A DNA stretch of 64,000 nt from an uncultured Candidatus Saccharibacteria bacterium. Lineage in GTDB: Bacteria; Patescibacteriota; Minisyncoccia; Sungbacterales; HO2-52-23. Positions 2,389 through 51,363 of the stretch are shown one piece after another. Where the stretch lies: the NCBI GenBank assembly GCA_964501445.1, contig CAZCSJ010000001.1, positions 7,248 through 71,247 on the forward strand. Reading direction: 5' to 3'. The first letter of the stretch is position 1, and each line of letters begins with the position of its first letter. The position numbers and the translations under genes were made by a program. The notes beneath the pieces were generated by a model. The model made no database searches, had not been told where the DNA came from, and saw only the letters and a program-made list of their open reading frames with translations.

Positions 2389-4941
2389 TTAGAACCCTTG
2401 AAGCAGTTGTATGAGTTTCTCTCGCATCGTCTCTAAGATTTGAGAAATAACCGCGAGGTTTTTGGCGCGGGTATCAATGGAGGAAGTGGTGGTGGAGGTA
2501 ATAGGGGCTTGCAAGGGAAAAATCAATTCATCGTCTTTCGAGGATGAATTATCCCCCGGAGTTTTTTGGCAAGTAACTCGGATATGTAAATTATTGCGGG
2601 ATTCATAGTATGGATCAGTACTACGGGCGTATAACTGTATGCTACCTGATGGGGGAATGAAGTTTACTATTCCTACTGGTGACCATATACCGCCGCCTAC
2701 CTTCGGAATAGGATATCCGCTTTCTAAGCAGGTACCTGCTCCGCTAGAAGTCCATGAAACAGTGAGTACCGAATTATAAGGAACTGACGACAGTTGGTCT
2801 TGTCCGTTTACTTTTACGTCCACGCTCATCGGAGTAGCCGCAGGTGTGGTTGCCGAAACCGGACTTGACTGCGCCGATACGTTGCCTGCGGCATCATACG
2901 CGGCAACGGTGTAGGTATATGTCGTGGCGGCGGTAAGTCCGTTAAGTCCAAGATCAGTGAAGCTCGTATATGGACTATTGGTTAGAAAAGCTCCGTTTCG
3001 GTATACTTTGTATCCAGTAACCCCACCCACATCATCCCTAGAAGCTGACCATGAAAGATTGATTTGGGTTGAAGAAATGACATTCGCGTTAAGGTTACCG
3101 GGGATTGAAGGAGCAGAGGTGTCTGCAAATGTGGTGATAGAAGCCGTATTTGATTGCGCTGATATATTTCCCGCCACATCATACGCGGCAACGGTATAGG
3201 TATACGTCGTGGAAGGAGCAAGTCCGAGATCGGTGTAACCGATAGAAGAGACAGTCATTACCAAAGTTCCATTTCGATATATTTTGTAACCGGCTACGCC
3301 AACAACATCAGTAGAGGCACTCCACAACAAATCAACTCTGGTGGTTGGAACGAAGGATGTATTAATTTGGTAGGAAAAAGCGAGGGCAGTAGCAGTAAAA
3401 TTGGCTGGTGTTGAGGGGGCGATGGTATCGGTAGTAGCGGTAGAAGTAGTAGGCGGGTTGAGCGTGATTTTGATTGTATCATGCACACCCGGCCAATTTG
3501 GAGGCGTGGAGCAGTAAGCCCCAATATCAATTACTAATTGGTTGGGGAAATTGGCGTGCCGAGCGTAGAGTTGTGTACTGCCGGAGAGCGGTATACCGCT
3601 ATTCGAACTGTCGCCTATTGGATATGGCCATTGGCTATTACCGTTCGCGCCCGGGACGATAGAGCCTTCTCTCGCACAGTTCGTGGCTCCGGATGAGGTC
3701 CAAGTTACGTTGAGAATGGAGTTATAGGGAACGTTTGAAAGCGTATCCTGACCATTGACTTTTACATCTACTGATATCGGGGCGGATGCGGTGGTGGTTG
3801 TCGCGGTGGTGGCAGTTGTTGCAAGCGTTGTTGCCGAAACCGGAGATGACGATGCTGAGAAATTTCCCGCAGCATCATACGCGGCAATGGTGTAGGTATA
3901 TGTTATGAAAGCGAAGCGTCCGGTATCACTATAACTGGTAGAACTATTATTCGCTGCAAAAGTTCCGTTTCGATATATTTGGTAACCGGCTACGCCGACA
4001 TTATCGGTTGCAGCTGTCCATGAAAGGTTGATCTGCGAAGATGAAATTGCCGTAGCAGTAAGATTGATCGGTACAGAAGGAGAGATGACATCAGTTGTAG
4101 AAGTCGCTGTGGTTGATGTGGAAGTAGATGTCGACTGGGCCGGTACTGCTGGTGTCGCGGGGATTGCCGACGTAGCGGGTTGAGCAGGAGTGGCGGGAGT
4201 AGCCGGTATGGCAGGGGTTATTCCCGATGGAGTAGTAGTGGCCGTTGTGGTAGTAGTCGTTGTCGCAGTTTGTTGAACCGGTATCGCCAGAATAGTTGTT
4301 GTTCCGGTAAGGCCCATTGGTTGAGCGGGGATGGTACCAGATGGAGTAGAGGTAGGGATTGTCGCGACGGGAATTCTCAGTAATCCCGGCGGAACAACAC
4401 CCGATGCTCCTGCACCATACGCTAAGAGACCCTGTACCACTCCCCTGCCAAGCTCTTGGAACTTCGCAAGGGTTTTGGGCCCTACAATCCCTACTGATTC
4501 AATCCCATGTTTTTCCTGCCATTTTTTTACCGCTTTTTCCGTGAGAGGACCAAAAAAGCCGGTGATAAGACCGTTGGGATAGATTTCCTTATCTCTTGCG
4601 AGAAATGCCTGGAGTTTGCGCACATCGTCGCCGGATGCGCCGCGGGAAAGAGGGCGGGTAAGTTCTGGGGGGGTTGCTTCGGGTTCTACAGGGGGAACAT
4701 CGGGAAGGATTGCTGACGGAGTGGTTTTGCTCGTTGGAGTTGCTTTTTCCGGTTCTTGGCCGAGTTCTCCCTGTAATGTTGCTACCTGCTGTTGGAGCGC
4801 CTGGATTTGTTTCAAGAGGTCCTGAATTTGTTTTTGGAGGTCGGCAGTAGAAAGTTTTTGATCGGCGCTTTGGGCGAAAACAAAAAATGGGGTGGCAAGA
4901 AGTAGTAATAACGTAATAGATGCAATGGAAAAGTTTTTCAT
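2389..4941 (-). CDS. Secreted cell-surface protein: signal peptide, coiled coil, peptidoglycan-binding domain, Thr/Pro linkers, 3 FN3-like domains and 2 copies of a Cys-containing Ig-like module
   Basis: 850 aa. N-terminal hydrophobic signal. PG_binding_1-like DDVRKLQAFLA...GFFGPLTEKAVKKWQ. FN3-like INLSW(T/S)A..D.VGV.GY.IYRNG repeated. The module VDVKVNGQD.LS.VPYNS.L.V.WTSSGA..C...GS.QLYAR occurs twice. Confidence 0.8.
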   Translation of the reverse strand: MKNFSIASITLLLLLATPFFVFAQSADQKLSTADLQKQIQDLLKQIQALQQQVATLQGELGQEPEKATPTSKTTPSAILPDVPPVEPEATPPELTRPLSRGASGDDVRKLQAFLARDKEIYPNGLITGFFGPLTEKAVKKWQEKHGIESVGIVGPKTLAKFQELGRGVVQGLLAYGAGASGVVPPGLLRIPVATIPTSTPSGTIPAQPMGLTGTTTILAIPVQQTATTTTTTTATTTPSGITPAIPATPATPAQPATSAIPATPAVPAQSTSTSTSTTATSTTDVISPSVPINLTATAISSSQINLSWTAATDNVGVAGYQIYRNGTFAANNSSTSYSDTGRFAFITYTYTIAAYDAAGNFSASSSPVSATTLATTATTATTTTASAPISVDVKVNGQDTLSNVPYNSILNVTWTSSGATNCAREGSIVPGANGNSQWPYPIGDSSNSGIPLSGSTQLYARHANFPNQLVIDIGAYCSTPPNWPGVHDTIKITLNPPTTSTATTDTIAPSTPANFTATALAFSYQINTSFVPTTRVDLLWSASTDVVGVAGYKIYRNGTLVMTVSSIGYTDLGLAPSTTYTYTVAAYDVAGNISAQSNTASITTFADTSAPSIPGNLNANVISSTQINLSWSASRDDVGGVTGYKVYRNGAFLTNSPYTSFTDLGLNGLTAATTYTYTVAAYDAAGNVSAQSSPVSATTPAATPMSVDVKVNGQDQLSSVPYNSVLTVSWTSSGAGTCLESGYPIPKVGGGIWSPVGIVNFIPPSGSIQLYARSTDPYYESRNNLHIRVTCQKTPGDNSSSKDDELIFPLQAPITSTTTSSIDTRAKNLAVISQILETMREKLIQLLQGF

Positions 4942-5128
4942 AAGAGAGGTCTAGACGTGTATCTTTTCAAAAGTATACCATGCCAAGCGGCAACATAAAA
5001 AGCATGTTGTGCACAAGGCGCATGCCATTCTGTAGCTTTAGCGAAAGATGGCTGCCCGGGCGGGAACTCCTCGATAAACTACCACACGGAATGTTATAGA
5101 ACTTCGGGGTAACATTCGGAGTTAGGTA

Positions 5129-26628: not shown

Positions 26629-26729
26629 GTATGTAGAGAAATTATGTTATGACTCTGCCTCATTCGACATCACAATTATACCAACCAAAGAATCGTCATG
26701 CAATTGGCGTACGCGAAGGGATATGCACA

Positions 26730-26768
26730 CCTAAAAATCCCCTTCGACATGCTCAGGGGATTTTTAGG
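26730..26768. terminator. Hairpin terminator downstream of the 26797..27987 gene
   Basis: 13-bp stem CCTAAAAATCCCC/GGGGATTTTTAGG. The loop carries a family-C half-site, CCTTCGACATGCTCAGG. Confidence 0.65.
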
Positions 26769-26796
26769 ATTTCGGGGTTTCCCTCTGCGAGTTGCT

Positions 26797-27987
26797 TTAG
26801 ATCTTAATCCCCACGAGCGAATTCTGATTTTTCCGCTCCTCGGCCTTTTTCATAATGGTAAATACCGTAAACGCCGTTGCCGCAACCGAGAGAATAATAA
26901 TCACCGCGGCAAAGAGGAAGGAGTTTCGTTCAAGCGAGGCGAGGGCCGCGGCAAGACCCTTCTCGGAATCGCCTGTTTTTGCGCTCTCCCCTGCTTTCAC
27001 AAATCCGTTTTCAAGGCAAAGTTTTTCCGTAGGATCCACTTCCGGAGCTTTGGGTGCAAGCGCAATAGATGCGACGGTGCGCGTCGGCTGTGTCGCCGCT
27101 GCTGCCGGATTTACCGCAACCCGGCACGTTGCCGAGGCACTCCGACCCGCCTCATCGCGCGCCGTTACCGTGGCACTTTTCGTTCCGGTACTTGTAAATG
27201 TGGCGGTCTTGGCAGCGCCGCTTCCCGAGACGTCTCCTGTCCATGAAAAGGTTGTCTGGCCTGTTCCCCCTGATGCGCCGCCAGCAAAGGTTACCCGATC
27301 GCCAACCCGGATGGTCGAAGGACTTGTCACGCAGGACGCCGCAAAGGATGCAGGTATTGGCGCAGGAGCCCGATTCACGAGCACGGTCTTATTTGCCGAT
27401 GCAGATCCGCCGCTTGCATTGGTGCACACGAGCGAGTAGGTAGTGTTTACGGCGGGCGTTACACGTTCAGTACCCGAAAGAAGTTTTGTGCCAGACCAGA
27501 TCCCCCCTGATGCGATACATGTGCTCGCCCCGGAAGAACTCCAGGCAAGAGTTGCTGCCTCGCCGGAGGCAACACTTTCAGGAACGGCATTTAATGTAGC
27601 TGTGACACCCGCAATCCCGCTTCCCGTACCGGTGGTGGATACGGGGGTAACGGTGGTCGGCACCGAAACAGAAACGGTAACGCGCTGAGAGGCCGACCCC
27701 TCAGGACCCGTGCATACGATCGCGTATTCTGTGGTTTGGCGCGGCGCGTCCCATGCCGAACCATAGGTTTGGAGGTATCCGCTCCATCCGCCTGATGCGA
27801 CACAATACGAAGCATTGGACGCGTTCCAGGAGAGCGACACCGCCTGTCCCTGCGAAACGGATGTGGGGTTTGCGTTAAACGTAAGCGTCGGGGGCGCGGC
27901 AAACACCGGTGCGGCAGTCAACACAAACACCGCGATCCCAAACGCGATCCCACACACAATTCGTTTTGCGAGTTGAAGTTTTTCCAT
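26797..27987 (-). CDS. Cell-surface protein with repeated Ig-like/PKD-like modules and a C-terminal TM anchor
   Basis: 396 aa. Signal peptide. Repeated ..LSWN(A/S)S.AS.C.ASGGWSG...Y.(I/L)VCT modules. PKD-like TFSWTGDVSG...VTARDEAGRSASATC. C-terminal hydrophobic helix. Confidence 0.75.
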   Translation of the reverse strand: MEKLQLAKRIVCGIAFGIAVFVLTAAPVFAAPPTLTFNANPTSVSQGQAVSLSWNASNASYCVASGGWSGYLQTYGSAWDAPRQTTEYAIVCTGPEGSASQRVTVSVSVPTTVTPVSTTGTGSGIAGVTATLNAVPESVASGEAATLAWSSSGASTCIASGGIWSGTKLLSGTERVTPAVNTTYSLVCTNASGGSASANKTVLVNRAPAPIPASFAASCVTSPSTIRVGDRVTFAGGASGGTGQTTFSWTGDVSGSGAAKTATFTSTGTKSATVTARDEAGRSASATCRVAVNPAAAATQPTRTVASIALAPKAPEVDPTEKLCLENGFVKAGESAKTGDSEKGLAAALASLERNSFLFAAVIIILSVAATAFTVFTIMKKAEERKNQNSLVGIKI

Positions 27988-33118: not shown

Positions 33119-33877
33119 TTAAAATTCCCTTAGCCGCGGGACAATGCTCGTCTGAAGCGACAGGGACACAGGAGACGAGAGCCGCGGATCTGCGGACTGG
33201 ACTTGAAGGACGATCGTCGCGATCGGCTGGCCATCGGAAGAACCCCGCGTCGCGCCATGGAGAACGAAACGGAGATTTTTCACTCTCACCTCATCGCTCG
33301 TGAGCGGCTGGGTGTATGCCGTCTCCCCGCAGTTTTGGTGATTTACACTGTCACTCATCCGCATGATGGTGAGATTTTCCGGCCGCGAATCCCAGTAGTA
33401 GGTAATCTGCGTTCCCTCGGAGTTGGTAAACGTGAGTTCGTGGATCGGATCAAACCCGGAACCCACGCAGTTTAACCCAAAGGAGGTATTTTGGTACCCA
33501 AAACCCGTGCGGAGCTCTTTTGTAATCAACTCCAAACTGAAACGGACATTATCTTGGATCGCCTGGGTTTCGGCCGCGCGGACCTGCGCATTCATGATAT
33601 CAATCGTGACTCCGATCGCGCTCACCACGATCACCAAAAAAATCCCCATGGAGGTAACCATCTCAAGCAAGGTAAACCCGTTTCGCCCCCCACCCCACGA
33701 TGAGATTCCTATGCGTTTTTGCGAAATTGTGGAGGCGTGGCGCACAAATAACCGAAGCGAGGAGGATGGGAAACAGGGGCGCGAGTCCCGCGGGAAGCGG
33801 GACGAGCGAACACTGAGGGGTTCCCGCCGACGAGCGAGGATTATTTGTCCACGCCGAAACGTTGAAGCAAAACGCAT
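33119..33877 (-). CDS. Type IV pilin-like pseudopilin with a long identical N-terminal module
   Basis: G|FTLLEMVTSMGIFLVIVV prepilin motif. The ATG at 33877 lies 7 nt after the upstream stop. The first about 70 codons are identical to the next gene. Confidence 0.75.
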   Translation of the reverse strand: MRFASTFRRGQIILARRREPLSVRSSRFPRDSRPCFPSSSLRLFVRHASTISQKRIGISSWGGGRNGFTLLEMVTSMGIFLVIVVSAIGVTIDIMNAQVRAAETQAIQDNVRFSLELITKELRTGFGYQNTSFGLNCVGSGFDPIHELTFTNSEGTQITYYWDSRPENLTIMRMSDSVNHQNCGETAYTQPLTSDEVRVKNLRFVLHGATRGSSDGQPIATIVLQVQSADPRLSSPVSLSLQTSIVPRLREF

Positions 33878-33879
33878 AG
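33663..33879 (-). repeat. Duplicated pseudopilin 5-prime module, copy 1
   Basis: 33663-33863 is identical base for base to 34456-34656 (201 bp, compared by eye). Similarity continues through the ATG. Confidence 0.95.
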
Positions 33880-33884
33880 GAATC

Positions 33885-34670
33885 TCATCTCCAATTATAT
33901 AATCGCTCCCGCAACTCGACCTCTTTTCGCACTCCGCGCTCATCCCACCATACTCGTGAGATAACATCCATTTGGTCGTTCTTGTTGATGTTATTCGCTT
34001 GATCTTCATTATCGGGCGGCGATCTCACGGTGACGGTGCGGCGAAAGATCGTGGGCTCCGCACCGCCGTATCCCACAAGACCGGTTGCTGGATCCCGCGA
34101 GAGATTTTGATTCCCCACGCCGGCCTGGGCAGGAGAAAACAACGGCATGGGAATTACGGGGTTTCCCCCGCACGTGATTCCTTCCGGTCCGATCTGGGTG
34201 GCATCCACCTCCCATGTGCCGTCCATGGATCCGCTCCCCGAGGGATGACGCTCCCAATCCCATTTTGGCTTGCCGTTCAATTGATCGCACAGCACATTAT
34301 TTTCACGCACGAGCCGCACGATCTCAATTCCCTCTTGCGCGAGGTGCAGGGCGGCAAGACGGTTTTTGGCGGAAGGGAAAGAAGAAATACTGCGCGTGAC
34401 CACCGCAACCGGCCCCACGACTGCCGCGAGAATCAGAGAGAGGGCGATAATGGTTTCAAGCAAGGTAAACCCGTTTCGCCCCCCACCCCACGATGAGATT
34501 CCTATGCGTTTTTGCGAAATTGTGGAGGCGTGGCGCACAAATAACCGAAGCGAGGAGGATGGGAAACAGGGGCGCGAGTCCCGCGGGAAGCGGGACGAGC
34601 GAACACTGAGGGGTTCCCGCCGACGAGCGAGGATTATTTGTCCACGCCGAAACGTTTGAGTAAAACGCAT
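33885..34670 (-). CDS. Type IV pilin-like pseudopilin with a long identical N-terminal module
   Basis: G|FTLLETIIALSLILAAVV prepilin motif. The ATG at 34670 lies 7 nt after the upstream stop. Confidence 0.75.
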   Translation of the reverse strand: MRFTQTFRRGQIILARRREPLSVRSSRFPRDSRPCFPSSSLRLFVRHASTISQKRIGISSWGGGRNGFTLLETIIALSLILAAVVGPVAVVTRSISSFPSAKNRLAALHLAQEGIEIVRLVRENNVLCDQLNGKPKWDWERHPSGSGSMDGTWEVDATQIGPEGITCGGNPVIPMPLFSPAQAGVGNQNLSRDPATGLVGYGGAEPTIFRRTVTVRSPPDNEDQANNINKNDQMDVISRVWWDERGVRKEVELRERLYNWR

Positions 34671-34672
34671 AG
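34456..34672 (-). repeat. Duplicated pseudopilin 5-prime module, copy 2
   Basis: See copy 1. Confidence 0.95.
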
Positions 34673-34677
34673 TGGCT

Positions 34678-35334
34678 TCACTTTATACTTATCTGCCCGT
34701 TCGTTTTCACAATGATGGTTCGCTGCGGACTGCCGTCGGAGGGGGCCACGACAATACGCAGTTCACTTCCAATATCTGCTCCATTCTCATCGGTAAGCGT
34801 GAGTTTTGCTTCTGGCGCGGCAAAAAGAACGTGCGCCGCGGGATAGGGATTTTGCGACTGCAAGCCGCGGAGTTCATAGATCGTGGTACCACGCGGCAAG
34901 TAATACTTTTGGATATCAAGATCCGCGCCGCCTTGCTCGCCGAGCGGCACATATTTTCCGTCAGGCGGATTTCCCATATCGGCAAAAGTTTGCGTGGAGA
35001 GTTCCCCTGCCCGAATCCACACCCCGACCACCGGAGCGGTCACGGGTCCCGCCTGTGTCGGTACGGCGCGCACCGCGAGCGCCATGTTCTGGGCGCTCCG
35101 AAGGGTAAGTGCTACCTCGCGGCTGGCGCGGTTCAATACCCCTCCCTCATTGAGGCCGGTGAAACTCACAAGCACCAACGCGCTCATGAAGGTTACCACC
35201 GCAATCATGACGACCGCTTCAACGAGTGTGAATCCCGCACATAACTTCTTTTTACTTCTCTCGTGCACCCCTTCATTGTATCGTGTTTTGTCTAAATAAA
35301 AAATCCCCTCGTATGGGCAATGGGATTCTCGCAT
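34678..35334 (-). CDS. Type IV pilin-like pseudopilin
   Basis: KKKLCAG|FTLVEAVVMIAVV prepilin motif. The real start may be the in-frame GTG at 35268, which would give a 12-aa leader. Confidence 0.8.
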   Translation of the reverse strand: MRESHCPYEGIFYLDKTRYNEGVHERSKKKLCAGFTLVEAVVMIAVVTFMSALVLVSFTGLNEGGVLNRASREVALTLRSAQNMALAVRAVPTQAGPVTAPVVGVWIRAGELSTQTFADMGNPPDGKYVPLGEQGGADLDIQKYYLPRGTTIYELRGLQSQNPYPAAHVLFAAPEAKLTLTDENGADIGSELRIVVAPSDGSPQRTIIVKTNGQISIK

Positions 35335-45423: not shown

Positions 45424-46146
45424 ATGCATTATCCCCAATTGATTCGCGGTAAGGAAGCGGTGCTTGACCTTCTCTTCCCGCTCCGGTGTGTGGAGTGCGG
45501 CAATGAAGGCGATCTCTGGTGCGCGGCATGCCGCGGGCTCGTGCGGGTAGTGCCGCCTCTCTGTGTCCGATGCGGTCTCTGGACACTCGCACGTTCCCGC
45601 GTCCGTCCGGGACGCACATGCCCTTCCTGCCAACCGCATTCTTCAATATACGCGTATGTATCTCCGTATCGCTATGACACGCCCGCTGTCCGAGAACTTA
45701 TCCACCGGATGAAGTATCAACGCGTACGCTCAATTGCTCTGCTTTTTGGTGCGCTTCTTACGGACGCGTGCGTACGCACAGGAATTTCTCTATCGGACAT
45801 GTCGTATATTGTCCCTATCCCATTGCACCCGGCGCGCGAGCGCGTACGCGGGTTTAACCAATCGCAATTAATCGCTGAGGAAGTCCGTCGCCGTGCCGGA
45901 CTCGCGGTCCGAAGCGACCTCCTCACGCGCGTGCGGCGCACACTGCCGCAAGTTGAGTGCAGCGGAGAGGAACGCCTCGCAAATGTCCGAGACGCGTTTG
46001 CGGTTGTCAACCCATTAGCGGTTCGTGATGCGACCATACTGCTTCTTGACGACGTAAAAACAACCGGCGCCACCCTGGAAGAGGCGGCGCGGGTGTTGAA
46101 AGAGGCAGGCGCGAAGAGAGTGTGGGCGATGACAGTGGCGCACTGA
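45424..46146 (+). CDS. comF: ComF-family protein (competence-associated phosphoribosyltransferase)
   Basis: 240 aa. N-terminal Zn-finger-like C..C...C..C and the PRT motif ILLLDDVKTTGATL. Confidence 0.88.
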   Translation: MHYPQLIRGKEAVLDLLFPLRCVECGNEGDLWCAACRGLVRVVPPLCVRCGLWTLARSRVRPGRTCPSCQPHSSIYAYVSPYRYDTPAVRELIHRMKYQRVRSIALLFGALLTDACVRTGISLSDMSYIVPIPLHPARERVRGFNQSQLIAEEVRRRAGLAVRSDLLTRVRRTLPQVECSGEERLANVRDAFAVVNPLAVRDATILLLDDVKTTGATLEEAARVLKEAGAKRVWAMTVAH

Positions 46147-46184
46147 TCCTTCACTTGAGATGGCAATGCGCGTGAGCGGGTTGG

Positions 46185-46241
46185 AGGCCGAGCGGGCATG
46201 GTCCGAGCACTCAACGCATTGAGTGCTCGGGAGCGAGGCTT
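46185..46241 (+). other. GCGGGCATGGT structured motif, copy 1 (strand not established)
   Basis: P1 AGGCC/GGCTT; J GAGCGGGCATGGT; P2 12-bp stem CCGAGCACTCAA/TTGAGTGCTCGG; J GAGCGA. Confidence 0.5.
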
Positions 46242-46341
46242 AATTCGTAAGATGTTTCAAGCGAGCCTATCGCACGCGAGCGTAATTGTGGAGGCGCGTT
46301 TTTATTTTAGGCGAGAAGCAGTTCGTTTATGAGCGGGGTTT

Positions 46342-46392
46342 GAAAGCCGAGCGGGCATGGTCTCCGATATATATCGGAGGAGCGAGGCTTTC
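46342..46392 (+). other. GCGGGCATGGT structured motif, copy 2 (strand not established)
   Basis: P1 GAAAGCC/GGCTTTC; J GAGCGGGCATGGT; P2 CTCCGAT/ATCGGAG; J GAGCGA. Enclosed by a long-range stem between 46315-46330 and 46432-46447. Confidence 0.5.
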
Positions 46393-46399
46393 ACCTATG

Positions 46400-46420
46400 A
46401 AAATCCTCGCTGGGGATTTT
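46400..46420 (-). terminator. Shared hairpin AAAATCCTCGCTGGGGATTTT downstream of rny
   Basis: The identical 21-mer recurs at 48622-48642 downstream of the sigma gene. The stem is weak (7 bp, A/U-rich), so a terminator function is tentative. Confidence 0.45.
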
Positions 46421-46450
46421 CATAAAAGCGAATAAACGAAGTGCTTCGAG

Positions 46451-47977
46451 CTACCGAGCATACTCAATCACCCTATTCTCCCGTATCACATTTACCTTAA
46501 TCTCCCCCGGATATTTGAGTTCGTTTTCAATTTGGATCGCGATGTTTCGCGCAAGCTCCCGCGCTTCAAGGTCGCTTATTTTCTCGGGTGTGACAAAAAT
46601 CCGTATTTCGCGGCCGCCGGAGATCGCGTATGTTTTTTCCACCCCATCAAATGAGTTTGCGATCCGTTCAAGATCTTCCAGTCGCTTGATGTAATGTTCA
46701 AGCGTGTCGCGGCGCGCACCCGGGCGTGAGGCGGAGATCGCGTCTACCGTCTGCACAATGACGGATTCTATGGTTTCGTACGGATACTCTTCGTGATGCG
46801 ATTGCATGGCTTTTATCACCCGCTCGTCCACGCCGAATTTCTGGAGGATCCGCCTGCCGATTTCCACATGCGTTCCCGTCACCTCGTGGTCAACCGCTTT
46901 TCCGATATCGTGCAGGAGCGCTCCTTTCTTTGCAATTGCGATGTCTCCCCCGACCTCCGAAGCAAGCATGCCTGCCAAGTGCGCCATTTCTATTGAGTGG
47001 TGGAGCACATTTTGTCCGTAGCTCGTGCGGAATGCCAACCGCCCGAGGAGGGTGACAAGCCGCGGGTCAAGGTCAAAGATGCCGACCTCAAATGCCGCCT
47101 GCTCGCCCGATTTTTTGACTTCTTTCTCTATTTCCGTACGCGCCTTCTCTACGGTTTCTTCAATACGCGCGGGCTGGATCCGCCCGTCCTGAATCAACAT
47201 TTCCAGCGCCATTTTTGCGATGTGGCGGCGCACGGGGTCAAAGCCGGAAATCACAATGGAACCCGGCGTTTCGTCCACAATAATCTCCACACCCGCCGCG
47301 CGCTCCAGCGCCTTGATGTTTCGCCCCTCCTTTCCGATTATTTTTCCCTTGAGGTCGTCTGAGGGAATCGCAACAGTGGTGGTGGTGACCTCTGAAGTTG
47401 TCGCAGAGGCAATGCGCTGGATAACGGCGGCGAGGATGTGTTTTGCCCTCTGTTCCAGCGCTTCAACGCCATGCACTTCAAGTTTCTTTACGCGCACCAT
47501 CATGTCCTCGGCGTGGTCCCGCTCAACTTTGGCGACCAATTCCTTTTTTGCTTCTTCCTCGGAGAGATGCGCGACCCGCTCAAGTTCTTTCCCGAGCGCT
47601 TCATGTTTTTCCTCAAGCTCGGTTTTTACCGTTTTTACCTTTTCAATCCGCGCCTCCACGTCCCGCTCCCGTTTTTCAAACTCTTGAGCCCTCCGGTCAA
47701 ACGCGGTTTCGCGCTCAAGCAGCCGTTCTTCAAGACGCCGCACCTGCGAGAGCAAGTCCTTCTCTTCCTTTTTTGCGCTATCAGCAATGCGCGCTGCCTC
47801 TTCCTTTGCATTGAGGACGGTATCTTTTGCTTCGCGCTTCGCGTCCTCAACCAGTTTACGGAGGCGCGCTTCAATGGATGAGCGCCGGATGACGACGACG
47901 AGCTGCCGGATGAGGTAGCCGAGCACGACGCCAAGTCCGAGCACGAGCGCTCCCCATACCATAAGTGATGTATTCAT
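46451..47977 (-). CDS. rny: Ribonuclease Y
   Basis: 508 aa. N-terminal TM, long coiled coil, KH domain (GKIIGKEGRNIK) and HD domain (LLHDIGK). Confidence 0.95.
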   Translation of the reverse strand: MNTSLMVWGALVLGLGVVLGYLIRQLVVVIRRSSIEARLRKLVEDAKREAKDTVLNAKEEAARIADSAKKEEKDLLSQVRRLEERLLERETAFDRRAQEFEKRERDVEARIEKVKTVKTELEEKHEALGKELERVAHLSEEEAKKELVAKVERDHAEDMMVRVKKLEVHGVEALEQRAKHILAAVIQRIASATTSEVTTTTVAIPSDDLKGKIIGKEGRNIKALERAAGVEIIVDETPGSIVISGFDPVRRHIAKMALEMLIQDGRIQPARIEETVEKARTEIEKEVKKSGEQAAFEVGIFDLDPRLVTLLGRLAFRTSYGQNVLHHSIEMAHLAGMLASEVGGDIAIAKKGALLHDIGKAVDHEVTGTHVEIGRRILQKFGVDERVIKAMQSHHEEYPYETIESVIVQTVDAISASRPGARRDTLEHYIKRLEDLERIANSFDGVEKTYAISGGREIRIFVTPEKISDLEARELARNIAIQIENELKYPGEIKVNVIRENRVIEYAR

Positions 47978-48204
47978 ACATGGAACTCCCTTAAATCACA
48001 AAGGTCCTCTTTCCGGAAGAGGATAATGAGGGAGAGATATCGCAAATGTTACATTACCGATCGGTTGAGATCGGTTGAGGCATGAGAATAGAGGTGTGGA
48101 GCGGAAGAAAATCTCATGAAATGGTCTACCTTTTGCTCATTATCGCTCTTCCCGTGTGACCGGGAGCGTGTTATTCAAAAAGTTATTTGCTTTCTATAAC
48201 TCGC

Positions 48205-48233
48205 ATCGTAGCACTCCTGTTTTCTGATGTCAA
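48205..48233 (-). promoter_or_regulatory. Candidate sigma-70 promoter for rny
   Basis: On the minus strand, TTGACA (48233-48228), a 17-nt spacer, then TACGAT (48210-48205). This would give a roughly 220-nt leader. Confidence 0.45.
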
Positions 48234-48528
48234 AAAAAGATGTAATATCCACTCGCGTCATTGACATTTTGTCCCTTCCCGCGCGGGTCCTTCTCGCCCC
48301 ATCCTTTCCCGCTCACAGTGCTCCGCGCGGACACATTCTACGCGCTCCGCTCGGGGAACCCCTCCGTGTTCTCCGACGATACGTCGGAGCCCCGGTTTCC
48401 CCTTCGCTCCGCCTGCGTGAATGTGTATCCGGCGCTCCGCAAGTTCGCGGATAAAGGGTGGTGCGTGCTCCCGCGCGGGAATACCATATCCCAGAGCAGT
48501 CGAGCCGCCTCGTTTACGTGCGGCGCTC

Positions 48529-48611
48529 AAAGGTGCGGCGGGCATGGTTTGTCAAGGCTCTCATTCGTTGCCGTCCGCAGGACATACTGCCTTGACAACC
48601 GACGCACCTTT
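48529..48611 (+). other. GCGGGCATGGT structured motif, copy 3 (strand not established)
   Basis: P1 AAAGGTGCG/CGCACCTTT; J GCGGGCATGGT; P2 TTGTCAAGGC/GCCTTGACAA with a 30-nt loop; J CCGA. Followed 10 nt later by the shared 21-mer at 48622-48642. Confidence 0.5.
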
Positions 48612-48741
48612 GCGCGAACCTAAAATCCTCGCTGGGGATTTTGGGTGACCGCACTGAGCGAGGCGGCGAGGCCTGCCTGCCGGCAGAGAACCGCGATGGA
48701 TTCCTACAAAAAAAGAGGTCTCTGGTGTTACCTAAAGACCC

Positions 48742-49656
48742 CTACGAAAGCGATTGGTGGAGGATTTTTGCGGCAGGAGAACGCCGAAGCTTTTCCAGTG
48801 CATTGGCCTCAATCTGGCGTACGCGCTCGCGGGCTATCCCAAATATGTTCCCTACTTCTCTAAGAGAAAGCCCCTGTTCCCCTCCGATGCCGAAACGCAG
48901 CCGTACCACTTGGGCGTGGCGTTCAGGGAGAGTGTTTTTCAGGAGCGCATCCACTCTTTGCGCAAAATCGCGAGCGGCGATTTGTTCATCGAGCGGTGTC
49001 TGGCCGTCCGGGATGTTTGCGCCAAGCCGATCCGGCTCTTGCGTGGGTCGTTTTCCTTCTTCGTTGACAGCTTCGTCAAGCGAACGAAGGGGTTTGGCCA
49101 CCACAAGTTCCCTCATTTGAAAAATAATTTTTGGGGGGAGGCCTATTTCTCGAGCGATCTCCGCGTCAGTCGGATCTCTCCCGAGTTCCACAGAGAGGCG
49201 GCGAGTCGCGTATTTGATGCGCGAACGCCGGTCGTGGATATGAACGGGAATACGTATGGTCCTCCCGTAGTCCGCATTCGCGCGGCTCACTGCCTGCCGA
49301 ATCCACCATGTCGCGTACGTTGAAAATTTAAACCCCTTGCGGTAGTCAAACTTGTCAACTGCCCGGAGAAGGCCGACGTTTCCTTCCTGAATTAAATCCA
49401 GGAAGGTGAGGTTTGACGACCCGTCCAGATGATTTTTGACAATGGAAACCACAAGGCGGAGATTTGCCAGATATAGTTTCTCCCGCGCCTTTGCATCCCC
49501 CTTTTCCATCCGCCTGCCAAGCTCCTGTTCCTCCTCTTTGCTCAAGAGCGGGATTTTCCCGATTTTATAGGCGTAGAGACGGAGGGAACTTTCCAGAATC
49601 TCGCTCTCCTTATTTCCTTTCCCATTCTCTCCATCTCCATCGTGATATCTTTCCAT
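48742..49656 (-). CDS. RNA polymerase sigma-70 family factor (RpoD/SigA-like, lacking region 1.1)
   Basis: 304 aa. Region 2 [35 protein letters not shown] and a region 4 HTH. Canonical SD AAGGAGG lies 8 nt upstream of the ATG. Confidence 0.92.
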
Positions 49657-49782
49657 TCATGTATCCTCCTTATTTCCAAGGTACTGGGTACGATTCTCCA
49701 GAGCGCACGCTCTAGATTTTGCACATAGCGTAACACCCCATGCATGAAATACAAGTGGCGCAGCCGTGGTATAATCCATCGT

Positions 49783-51363
49783 ATGACAAGAAAACCGTTG
49801 CTTCTCGTAATTCTTGACGGCTTCGGGGTTTCCATTGACCCCAAAGGCAATCCGGTTGCGGAAGCAAAAAAACCAACGCTTGAGATGCTTGAACGCGAGT
49901 TTCCTTTTACCACGCTTCAAGCGTCGGGCGTGGCAGTCGGCCTCCCGTGGGGAGAAGCAGGAAACTCCGAGGTGGGGCATTTGACGATTGGCTCTGGCCG
50001 CGTCATCTACCACCACCTTCCGCGCATCATCAATGCGATTGCGGATGAATCATTTTTCAAAAACGAGGCGTTTTTGGGTGCGGCCGCGCATGTAAAAAAG
50101 AATAATACACGCTTCCATATTGCGGGGCTCGTGTCTTCCGGCTCCGTGCATGCGTATATTGACCATCTCTACGCAATTCTTGATTTTACCAAACAGCAAG
50201 GAATCGCCGAAGTATATCTGCATCTTTTTTCCGATGGCAAAGACGCGCCGCCGCAAGAGGGCGCAACGTTTTATGAAGCGCTTGAAGAGCGGCTGCAGCG
50301 CGACTATCCGCACGCGCGGATCGCTTCCCTCATCGGAAGGTTTTACGCCCTTGACCGCGGCGAACAGTGGGAGAGAACACAAATCGCATACGCGCTTCTG
50401 ACAGAAGGGAAGGGTGAAATAATCTCTTCGGTTCCCGAATATCTCTCGCGTTCCTACAAAGAAGGCCTTGCGGATGAAACCATCCGTCCGGCCCTCGTCG
50501 CGGATGCGAAAGGCACTCCTCTTCCCCGAATTGCAGAGGGTGATGCGCTTATCTTTACCGATTTTCGCGAGGACTCAATGCGGCAACTCGCGCATGCGTT
50601 TGGGGACGTCGCATTTGACCATTTTCCCCGAAAGAAGGTGGAAAATCTCTTTTTGGCAACTATGACCGAGTACGAAAAGGGACTCGCGGCGCACCCTGCC
50701 TTTCCGCAATTTGGAGTCGCTTGGCCTCTTGCGCGGGTGCTTGGAGACGCGGGATTGCGCCACCTCCACATTGCCGAAACCCAGAAGTACGCGCACGTGA
50801 CGTATTTTTTCAACGGAGGGATTGAGAAGCCGTTTCCGGACGAGGAGCGAGTGCTGATTCCTTCAGCACCCGCCGCGCACTTTGACGAGGCGCCGGAGAT
50901 GCGGGCACCTGACATCACGCAAAAAATTATACAGGGGCTGGATACCTATGATGTGATTATCGCAAACTACGCCAATGCCGACATGGTGGGGCATTCCGGC
51001 AATTTTCAGGCAGCGATTCGCGCGGTAGAAGCGATTGATGCAGCGCTCGGCGAGCTCGCAAACGCGATTCTCTCGCGGCCCAATGCCGTGATGATTGTGA
51101 CCGGAGACCACGGAAATGTGGAGTTAAAACGTCATTTGGTCTCGGGTGAGAAGCGAACCGAACACTCACTCTCCCCGGTCTACTGCATACTCGTGGGAAA
51201 GGAGTTTCGCCGCGCGGTTCCCCGCACCTCCGACGAGGTGCTCCGGGCAAAAAAAGAAGTCGGCGGGATTTTGACCGACATCGCGCCGACAATCATTGAA
51301 CTGCTTGGGTTAAAAAAACCCGCGGAGATGACAGGTGAAAGTTTGATTAAAATCCTTTTATAG
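49783..51363 (+). CDS. gpmI: 2,3-bisphosphoglycerate-independent phosphoglycerate mutase
   Basis: LLLVILDGFG, SEVGHLT.GSGR and GDHGN motifs. I place the start at the ATG at 49783 (MTRKPLLL..). Confidence 0.93.
   Translation: MTRKPLLLVILDGFGVSIDPKGNPVAEAKKPTLEMLEREFPFTTLQASGVAVGLPWGEAGNSEVGHLTIGSGRVIYHHLPRIINAIADESFFKNEAFLGAAAHVKKNNTRFHIAGLVSSGSVHAYIDHLYAILDFTKQQGIAEVYLHLFSDGKDAPPQEGATFYEALEERLQRDYPHARIASLIGRFYALDRGEQWERTQIAYALLTEGKGEIISSVPEYLSRSYKEGLADETIRPALVADAKGTPLPRIAEGDALIFTDFREDSMRQLAHAFGDVAFDHFPRKKVENLFLATMTEYEKGLAAHPAFPQFGVAWPLARVLGDAGLRHLHIAETQKYAHVTYFFNGGIEKPFPDEERVLIPSAPAAHFDEAPEMRAPDITQKIIQGLDTYDVIIANYANADMVGHSGNFQAAIRAVEAIDAALGELANAILSRPNAVMIVTGDHGNVELKRHLVSGEKRTEHSLSPVYCILVGKEFRRAVPRTSDEVLRAKKEVGGILTDIAPTIIELLGLKKPAEMTGESLIKILL

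Follow-up and report, generated by a model that had tools for sequence, protein, structure and literature searches.

A motif repeated in a 64,000-nucleotide (nt) stretch of contig CAZCSJ010000001.1, from an uncultured Candidatus Saccharibacteria bacterium, belongs to an undescribed multi-copy element family of Parcubacteria/candidate phyla radiation (CPR) genomes. The whole stretch is called the window here, and window coordinates are positions within it. The complete element is predicted to fold into a three-way junction in which an outer helix (P0) encloses the P1/P2 arm and a hairpin (P3), and its functional strand is the + strand of the window. The family has a REP/BOX-type distribution together with the conservation pattern of a structured RNA. 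Our tentative preference, at a probability of about 0.45, is that the element works as a folded single strand, most likely RNA, which would be recognised by a putative trans-acting factor.

The original prediction described three copies of the motif, and all three are real, with the core and stems confirmed in the sequence and in minimum free energy (MFE) folds; however, the unit is larger than was described and copy 1 is only partial. The core GCGGGCATGGT occurs exactly three times in the window, at 46192, 46351 and 48538, always on the + strand, as do the copies. When up to one mismatch is allowed there are six matches against 1.35 expected, a number reached in 0 of 100 shuffles. The 21-mer AAAATCCTCGCTGGGGATTTT said to follow copies 2 and 3 was found at 46400 and 48622, with 0 expected in the window. 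The motif TGAGCGGG(G)TT that copies 1 and 2 were said to share upstream is present at 46173 and 46330, but it is too short to be significant by itself. Because folding of the wider region joins them, the upstream TGAGCGGG, the P1-core-P2 arm, the 21-mer hairpin and the long-range stem are one object.

Two copies in the window are complete: copy 2 (46315-46453), with an MFE fold of -62.7 kcal/mol (z = -6.0), and copy 3 (48500-48677), with one of -106.1 kcal/mol (z = -7.4). A covariance model (R1) built from 56 copies of the family recovers them at 91 and 58 bits (58.2 bits at 48500-48677 for copy 3). Copy 1 is a partial or degenerate copy, consisting of the P1-core-P2 arm and the J0 motif only; R1 gives 15.6 bits at 46180-46246 (model positions 25-81), and its wider fold is unexceptional (z = -1.8). 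The 16-bp long-range stem reported around copy 2 exists, as 15 pairs and one G.G mismatch. It is not peculiar to that copy, since copy 3 also has an outer stem.

Fold and covariation

The element is about 140-180 nt long. P0 is a long helix, variable in sequence and covarying, and tandem sheared-type G.A pairs cap it at each end, in the pattern ..GCGA/helix/GAGC.., in which 5'-..GCGA before the helix and GAGC..-3' after it give A.G, G.A, C-G and G-C. The first arm runs in the order P1, then G.A, A.G, G-C and C-G, then an 8-nt bulge GGGCANGG, then P2, so that the GAGC/GCGA arrangement of the P0 caps also links P1 to the bulge. The segments between P1 and P2 had been described as single-stranded joiners; this holds for the 8-nt bulge, but the rest is partly paired by the G.A, A.G, G-C and C-G pairs of GAGC and GCGA. 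The cap positions are G.A/A.G in one subfamily and Watson-Crick in another (column 41-160). The second arm is P3, a variable stem with a conserved apical nCGCUGG. Among 40 P2 loops there are 25 triloops; 16 loops are GNA, 13 of these C-GAA-G, and neither GNRA nor UNCG tetraloops occur.

Pairing is seen in 92.5% of cells of the model-based alignment and in 65.8% once it is shuffled; for 29 of 31 pairs both sides change. The alignment has a covariation score of 0.572, which 0 of 500 shuffles reached, and shuffled alignments give 0.151; when partners were slid by 1-3 columns the score fell to 0.06-0.11. Mutual information independently places the predicted helices at the top and adds pairs in the inner P0 helix and in P1. 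G-U pairs outnumber A-C by 81 to 47, the invariant U.G of P3 being set aside. That U.G is rarely Watson-Crick, with 2 C-G in 107 distinct rows of a set chosen by the P3 21-mer. Only the window + strand has the tandem G.A pairs, GNA loops and P3 U.G, and + strand folds are more stable than - strand folds. The covariation exceeds both controls and, together with the many further copies described below, supports the proposal that the motif is a novel structured RNA or REP-like element.

Two structural candidates were rejected. A pseudoknot between J3' AGCGAGG and P3 CCUCGCU, exact complements in canonical copies, has no compensating change in the P3 variants ACGCCGG, UCGCAGG and GCGCUGG, and it is also uncompensated in those variants of the sub2 unit (see below) that have no GCGAGG. 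A kink-turn of the L7Ae type does not agree with our reading of sequence and structure, since tandem G.A pairs stand at three places without the 3-nt bulge on the required strand. The element does not read as protein-coding either: length steps in P2 are not multiples of 3, and the stems covary.

Distribution, genomic context and exchange of hairpins

A metagenome scan seeded only with the P3 21-mer AAAATYCTCGCTGGGRATTTT gave at least 120 loci, on contigs from places such as Hainich, Rifle and Crystal Geyser. Among the matches listed, the core GAGCGGGCANGGY lies at most 130 nt upstream of the 21-mer in 92 of 121 instances, and the window variant GAGCGGGCATGGT is the commonest core. Because loci were chosen by exact P3 sequence, variation of P3 is under-sampled in this collection. 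With R1, 683 kb of metagenome loci yield 116 copies at E <= 1e-3, several per contig and up to three in one 13.5-kb stretch, and about 20 of them are without the seed 21-mer. The consensus of the main subfamily is [P0] GAGAAACGCUCAAGC(C)GAC GAGCGGGCA(G/U)GGU [P2] GAGCGAGGAG GCUUG.CGAGUCC [AAAAUCCUCGCUGGGGAUUUU] GGACGUUUUCGAAA [P0'] (C)CGAGCGAUUGUUA. A second subfamily has the junctions GAGCGGCRU... and ...UAGCGARA, as in window copy 2. The copies include head-to-head pairs, partial copies and multiple copies per contig.

The exact core was in none of 80 loci of the RNase Y gene rny from GTDB species genomes. Recognisable homologous units with the same order of parts were found in the Azambacteria metagenome-assembled genome (MAG) L021, which has two copies and a near-identical core GGAGCGGGCACGGT, and in the Patescibacteria MAG L005. 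R1 also finds these copies and adds the Patescibacteria MAG L030. The element is present in the window, L005, L021 and L030 and is missing around rny in 76 other MAGs. The search for further copies suggested in the original prediction therefore succeeded in relatives as well as in metagenomes.

No match to a known family was found. As had been predicted, Rfam 15 has no match in the window at gathering score; at E <= 10 it gives nothing relevant in 45900-48900 or in a canonical copy (locus L127), and on eight further loci only rRNA and tRNA matches. By BLAST, none of 72,556 plasmids and 50,697 phage genomes matched it, and a literature search by exact sequence and keyword found nothing on the element. 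Two scans of IMG/VR gave chance matches only, lying within a reading frame or in GC-rich phage genomes without the stems. A viral origin was rejected, as the matches to the 19-nt pattern AAATYCTCGCTGGGRATTT, taken from the P3 21-mer, are chance matches inside a reading frame that may encode an IS4-type transposase, to judge from its appearance.

Copies are intergenic and lie beside diverse housekeeping genes: 174 flanking proteins fall into 147 clusters, with products including MurC, DnaG, GAPDH, L21, LysRS, RNase J, MurB, MreB, ProRS, Pth and S12. Of 93 copies, 66 have an opposite-strand gene as their P3-side neighbour and 27 a same-strand gene. The stop codon of an opposite-strand neighbour is usually 0-13 nt from the element end, and the distances to same-strand downstream genes are variable. 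Among the intergenic regions that carry copies there is some excess of convergent ones, and divergent ones are depleted. Flanking coding sequence is mainly on the opposite strand (51 loci against 25), and GC skew agrees. Because the neighbours are diverse and the orientation is mixed and mostly antisense, a cis-regulator on the sense strand is ruled out. This context leaves an independently transcribed RNA or a DNA-level element. A link to one gene family was rejected, the flanking genes being diverse. So was a link to rny: the position beside rny in both the window and L021 is within chance because there are few intergenic slots per locus.

On the 5' side the spacing is variable, and T-rich DNA ends in TTTA(A/G)A just before the element; no convincing -35/-10 pair was found besides this tract and word. 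P0 is followed by GAGCGAUUGUUA without a U-run, and P3 stands in an A4/T4 frame in some subfamilies only. An intrinsic terminator was rejected, as a terminator scan flags no window copy and nothing at the canonical copy. In locus L103 an 822-nt insertion with no long open reading frame (ORF) lies at 4197-5019 in a - strand 16S rRNA gene, after model position ~781.

The P2 hairpins of the three window copies had been regarded as unrelated in sequence, but each represents a module that recurs in copies of other genomes. The type of copy 1 (CCGAGCACUCAA..UUGAGUGCUCGG) is also in L110, L116 and L158, that of copy 2 (CUCCGA..UCGGAG) in L157 and L161, and that of copy 3 (UGUCAAGGC..GCCUUGACA) in L005, L092, L103, L135, L137, L183 and L187. 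Orthologous sites, whose neighbouring proteins are 81-92% identical, keep the element and carry different P2 hairpins (L127/L157, L116/L180 and L101/L161). B-type copies at different loci, two of them on one 550-kb contig, are about 95% identical, and their P3 stems differ completely on both arms with the loop nCGCWGG kept. Since both arms are replaced, point mutation cannot explain this. Recombination between paralogous copies, with the conserved flanks as homology, would be the simplest explanation of the module swaps. No targets of the hypervariable P3 stems were found within their own loci. A flank-to-flank search of all fetched loci, which had been selected for carrying the element, found no empty sites. 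The sole other contig with the rny of the window matches the window at 100% identity. Both the bulge and the P3 loop stay conserved between lineages that share only about 60-65% identity in RNase Y.

Copies in the window and related repeats

The positions of the copies, their parts and the genes around them are given in Table 1. The host is a CPR bacterium near Candidatus Sungbacteria; its RNase Y shares at most about 75% identity with proteins of Sungiibacteriota MAGs. Copies 1 and 2 fill the convergent spacer between comF and rny, and the stop codon of rny (46451-46453, - strand) is 3 nt past P0' of copy 2. The P0 of this copy is preceded by ..GGCGA, giving a tandem G.A closure with GAGC at 46448-46451. 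Its P3 apex reads C-U-C[GCU]G-G-G, with the U.G pair invariant in the collection, which was selected on the P3 21-mer. Copy 3 lies within a 760-nt spacer that separates the sigma factor gene and rny, and ORFs across it have no Pfam match.

Table 1. Positions of element copies, neighbouring genes and related units (window coordinates, except where a locus is named)
Feature	Position	Strand	Remark
Copy 1 J0-like junction motif TGAGCGGGTTG	46173-46183	+	matches GAGCGGCRU / GAGAAACG of family consensus
Copy 1 arm	46185-46241	+	partial element; P3 hairpin absent after arm
Copy 1 P1, AGGCC/GGCTT	46185-46189 / 46237-46241	+	sequence reading
Copy 1 core GAGCGGGCATGGT	46190-46202	+	
Copy 1 P2	46203-46230	+	12-bp hairpin
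Copy 1 J3', GAGCGA	46231-46236	+	
Copy 2 P0, 5' strand	46315-46330	+	partner 46432-46447
Copy 2 junction J0 GAGCGGGGTTT	46331-46341	+	
Copy 2 arm	46342-46392	+	P1 GAAAGCC/GGCTTTC at 46342-46348 / 46386-46392
Copy 2 core GAGCGGGCATGGT	46349-46361	+	
Copy 2 P2 CTCCGATATATATCGGAG	46362-46379	+	
Copy 2 J3', GAGCGA	46380-46385	+	
Copy 2 P3 hairpin	46397-46423	+	21-mer 46400-46420, lengthened by ATG/CAT
Copy 2 junction AAAAGCGA	46424-46431	+	
Copy 2 P0, 3' strand	46432-46447	+	15 pairs and one G.G mismatch
Copy 3 P0/P0b, 5' strands	48504-48526	+	partner 48649-48667, MFE fold
Copy 3 arm	48528-48612	+	P1 = 48528-48537 / 48603-48612
Copy 3 core GCGGGCATGGT	48538-48548	+	CGG (48539-48541) paired with CCG (48599-48601), GCATGGT bulged
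Copy 3 P2	48549-48598	+	UGUCAAGGC..GCCUUGACA type
Copy 3 P3 hairpin	48618-48646	+	21-mer 48622-48642, lengthened by CCTA/TGGG
Copy 3 P0b/P0, 3' strands	48649-48667	+	include GAGCGAGGCGGC
comF-like gene	45424-46146	+	Pfam and ORF coordinates
rny (RNase Y)	46451-47977	-	Pfam and ORF coordinates
Sigma-70 factor gene	48742-49656	-	Pfam and ORF coordinates
iPGM gene	49744-51363	+	Pfam and ORF coordinates
B-type copies	L098 2609-2760; L101 4918-5068; L130 1203-1353; L140 10428-10578; L148 4668-4818		
sub2 units	L106 2265-2500; L109 3175-3400; L139, L146, L150, L168, L173, L175, L192, L195, L196, L202		

In relatives (L002-L005, L009, L012, L016, L017) the iPGM gene and rny are adjacent and divergent. 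In the window they are separated, at 47978-49743, by the sigma-70 gene and the 760-nt stretch with copy 3, which is GC-rich and non-coding. This stretch has internal inverted repeats at ~48270-48480, with cccgcgcggg twice.

The sub2 unit, non-coding and conserved, is about 200 nt long. Its parts are a 5' hairpin (UUCCCUCUU..AAGAGGGAA), a three-way junction with the same P3 hairpin, a GCAUGGU bulge that faces GCGAGGAG and, at the end, a hairpin resembling a terminator. Its G-U pairs far outnumber A-C. There is no Rfam match to sub2; the best hit, ylbH at 26 bits, is below threshold and rests mostly on the terminator hairpin. The unit may be a small RNA (sRNA) gene that shares a partner with the dispersed elements.

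These genomes hold several intergenic repeat families. A long imperfect hairpin of about 200 nt occurs twice on the + strand of the window, at 33690-33895 and 34483-34690, 793 nt apart; it carries GAGCGA and AGCGAGG blocks and a GTCCCGC-GGGAAG-CGGGAC hairpin and has no R1 match. AGCGAGG itself occurs 15 times on the + strand of the window and 4 times on the - strand, with 3.8 expected. A "mini" unit, AGAGCGAACCCTTTTCTCTTGAGCGACATTATGG, consists of two GAGCGA words flanking a 13-nt spacer, and the further short repeats GACCCTCCCCTGAATCATTCGCAGAAGAAAAGACTCGCTC and AATTTTTAATTTTTAAAC recur in the same metagenome loci. These repeats lie upstream of many main-subfamily copies, for example in L088, L095, L096, L130 and L161, and in L090, L102, L167, L176 and L178. 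A hairpin of the form A5-TCCCC...GGGGA-T5 at 26709-26798 of the window is apparently an ordinary bidirectional terminator; it gives weak R1 matches on both strands because it is like the P3 frame. Genes for Y1_Tnp (IS200-like, Pfam) were found in L005 (7986-8429, E = 5e-33) and in L094 (10426-10800, E = 5e-29), 1.3 kb and 0.7 kb from a copy, respectively; these are 2 of about 200 loci, and the genes are not flanked by copies.

Possible function and significance

The three-way junction, the conserved bulge and distal loop, the deep conservation and the recurrence of the motifs in sub2 argue for a folded RNA. Such an RNA would be made from weak, AT-rich promoters upstream of the element, or by read-through. 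The unpaired conserved bulge and the P3 loop would then form the recognition surface for the putative trans-acting factor, probably a protein, and P0, P2 and the P3 stem would be scaffolds only. The fold is very stable and could also serve as a 3'-end barrier or an insulator between genes, as do REP and BOX repeats; we propose this role because the element lies directly after stop codons. At orthologous sites the copies are kept and trade apical hairpins, presumably by recombination among paralogous copies. Several findings weigh against the RNA reading. Two thirds of the copies are antisense to their neighbours, so read-through cannot supply RNA for them. No convincing promoter or terminator flanks the window copies, and promoter-like matches upstream of canonical copies sit in AT-rich DNA, where such matches are common. 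The G-U : A-C ratio, about 1.7-1.9 : 1, is modest for a long-selected RNA. The C-GNA-G triloop predominates in P2, and the abundance, the partial copies and the head-to-head clustering are typical of dispersed DNA repeats. The copy inside the 16S rRNA insertion of L103 (4815-4991, +) is antisense to the rRNA.

Many of the same findings suit the alternative that the element is a non-autonomous or recombinogenic palindromic repeat acting at the DNA level, in the manner of REP/REPIN, miniature inverted-repeat transposable elements (MITEs) or attC, whose single-stranded DNA (ssDNA) fold would be recognised by an enzyme such as an HUH/Y1 transposase, a recombinase or a primase. Spread or homogenisation would then be due to this enzyme or to gene conversion, and any RNA effect would be secondary. 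We regard this as a possibility of some weight, though less probable than an RNA. It agrees with the number and sporadic dispersal of the copies, their clustering, the copy in the rRNA insertion, the low G-U : A-C ratio and the Y1_Tnp genes in two loci. The swapping of whole hairpins between copies about 95% identical and between orthologous sites agrees as well, as does the 2:1 orientation bias relative to coding strand and GC skew. C-GNA-G triloops of the d(GCGAAGC) kind are very stable DNA mini-hairpins, and tandem G.A duplexes of the GAGCGA type, here GAGCGA:GAGCGA, are hyper-stable DNA motifs. However, REP and MITE families are usually less long-lived than the divergence across which the bulge and P3 loop are conserved. 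Searches for terminal inverted repeats with a conserved sequence, for a target-site duplication other than the structural GA motif and for attC core sites (0 of 75 copies) found none, and no transposase adjoins a copy. No empty-site polymorphism was seen in a sample not designed for its detection. If genes are co-oriented with replication, the structured strand would mostly be the leading-strand template, which is less exposed as ssDNA. Moreover, the motif set recurs in sub2, where G-U pairs prevail.

It is quite improbable that the element is an elaborate terminator or mRNA 3'-end stabiliser of the abutting gene, acting in either orientation with its loops incidental. The nearness of P3-side stop codons (0-13 nt for the 66 opposite-strand neighbours, 3 nt for rny), the bias towards convergent regions and the likeness of P3 to the A-tract/stem/T-tract terminator at 26709-26798 fit this idea. 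On the other hand, no U-tract follows P0 on either strand, the P3 stems of B-type copies are GC-rich and have no T-tract, and the strand of the abutting gene has C/U mismatches in place of the G.A pairs. A terminator also has no need of an invariant 8-nt bulge, P3 loop and tandem G.A pairs kept across phylum-level lineages. The original prediction had listed a ribozyme, a riboswitch or an sRNA. The element is neither a riboswitch nor a match to a known self-cleaving ribozyme family, and we consider any cis-regulatory riboswitch or self-cleaving ribozyme very improbable. The junction, the asymmetric bulge and the distal loop are aptamer- or ribozyme-like, and copies 1 and 2 stand in tandem. Yet there is no consistent downstream gene or class, a same-strand downstream gene is present in only 27 of 93 copies and at variable distances, and genomes carry tens of copies. 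Even at E <= 10 the ribozyme and riboswitch models of Rfam give no match, and the sole candidate tertiary pairing, J3' with P3, is uncompensated.

Beyond these readings, an unlikely but wider view is that of a CPR system with one recognition vocabulary: the GGGCAUGG bulge, the nCGCUGG loop and the tandem-G.A caps. The vocabulary would be common to sub2, as a possible sRNA gene, and to the tens of dispersed copies per genome. The latter would be an sRNA offshoot resembling short interspersed nuclear elements (SINEs), or decoy or landing sites for the partner protein of the sRNA. A dedicated mechanism would replace whole apical hairpins (P2 and P3) between near-identical copies.

Comparison with known repeats places the family near several of them. 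REP/BIME, BOX, ERIC and Correia repeats resemble it in size (~100-200 nt), many copies, an extragenic position just after genes, a long imperfect hairpin, a modular build (compare boxA-B-C) and partial and clustered copies. Those hairpins differ from our element, which branches into a three-way junction, has a conserved loop and an asymmetric bulge that does not vary, and whose helices covary and are not fixed in sequence. REP, BOX and Correia families are species- or genus-specific, whereas the unpaired motifs of the element span deeply diverged CPR lineages. The element also lacks the GTAG-type head that marks the short (about 20-40 nt) palindromes of REP/RAYT systems, and it has no conserved terminal inverted repeats and no TA duplication; it is branched. 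A MITE with conserved terminal inverted repeats and target-site duplications was rejected, because the terminal helix P0 varies and covaries between copies. The only excess of flanking direct repeats is that of GAGCGA (8 six-mers against 1.5 expected), and these are not target-site duplications because they are part of the structure.

Integron attC sites are alike in that structure is kept and sequence varies, in special features on the strand opposite the adjacent gene, in a start at or beside the stop codon and in a variable, sometimes branched apex. An attC identity was rejected: the RYYYAAC and GTTRRRY core sites are never both present, in either orientation. In contrast to attC, the element neighbours essential housekeeping genes (rny, sigma-70, murC, dnaG, gap), forms no arrays and has no intI nearby. 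Single-strand origins (ssoA), phage ssi signals and the d(GCGAAGC) mini-hairpins seem similar in their orientation-specific folds of ~150-200 nt, in tandem G.A pairs and in GNA triloops. One subfamily also has in its 3' junction a word, TAGCGA/T, that seems to resemble the CS-6 motif; this word is not family-wide. Unlike ssoA and ssi, the element is chromosomal and dispersed and has no plasmid or phage match. Multi-copy non-coding RNAs in Rfam (HEARO/omega RNA, RAGATH and the motifs of Weinberg et al. 2017) are alike in conserved unpaired nucleotides amid covarying helices, in several copies per genome and in discovery from metagenomes. The element differs from them in matching no Rfam 15 model, in having no associated IscB/TnpB or reverse transcriptase gene, and in loops that are GNA triloops and not GNRA or UNCG tetraloops.

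What the family means for CPR bacteria follows from its persistence. Genomes of CPR/Patescibacteria are about 0.5-1 Mb and have little room for non-coding DNA, and to our knowledge almost nothing is known of their non-coding RNAs and repeats. That an element of about 150 nt is kept in many copies, and that its unpaired nucleotides are conserved between deeply diverged lineages, implies strong selection. This conservation points to a partner, for which an RNA-binding protein, a nuclease and a DNA enzyme are candidate classes, and it raises the question of what binds the GGGCANGG bulge and the CGCUGG loop. For the study of repeat evolution, the exchange of entire hairpin modules at orthologous sites offers an unusual case. 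The family also supplies a ready covariance model for annotating CPR genomes.

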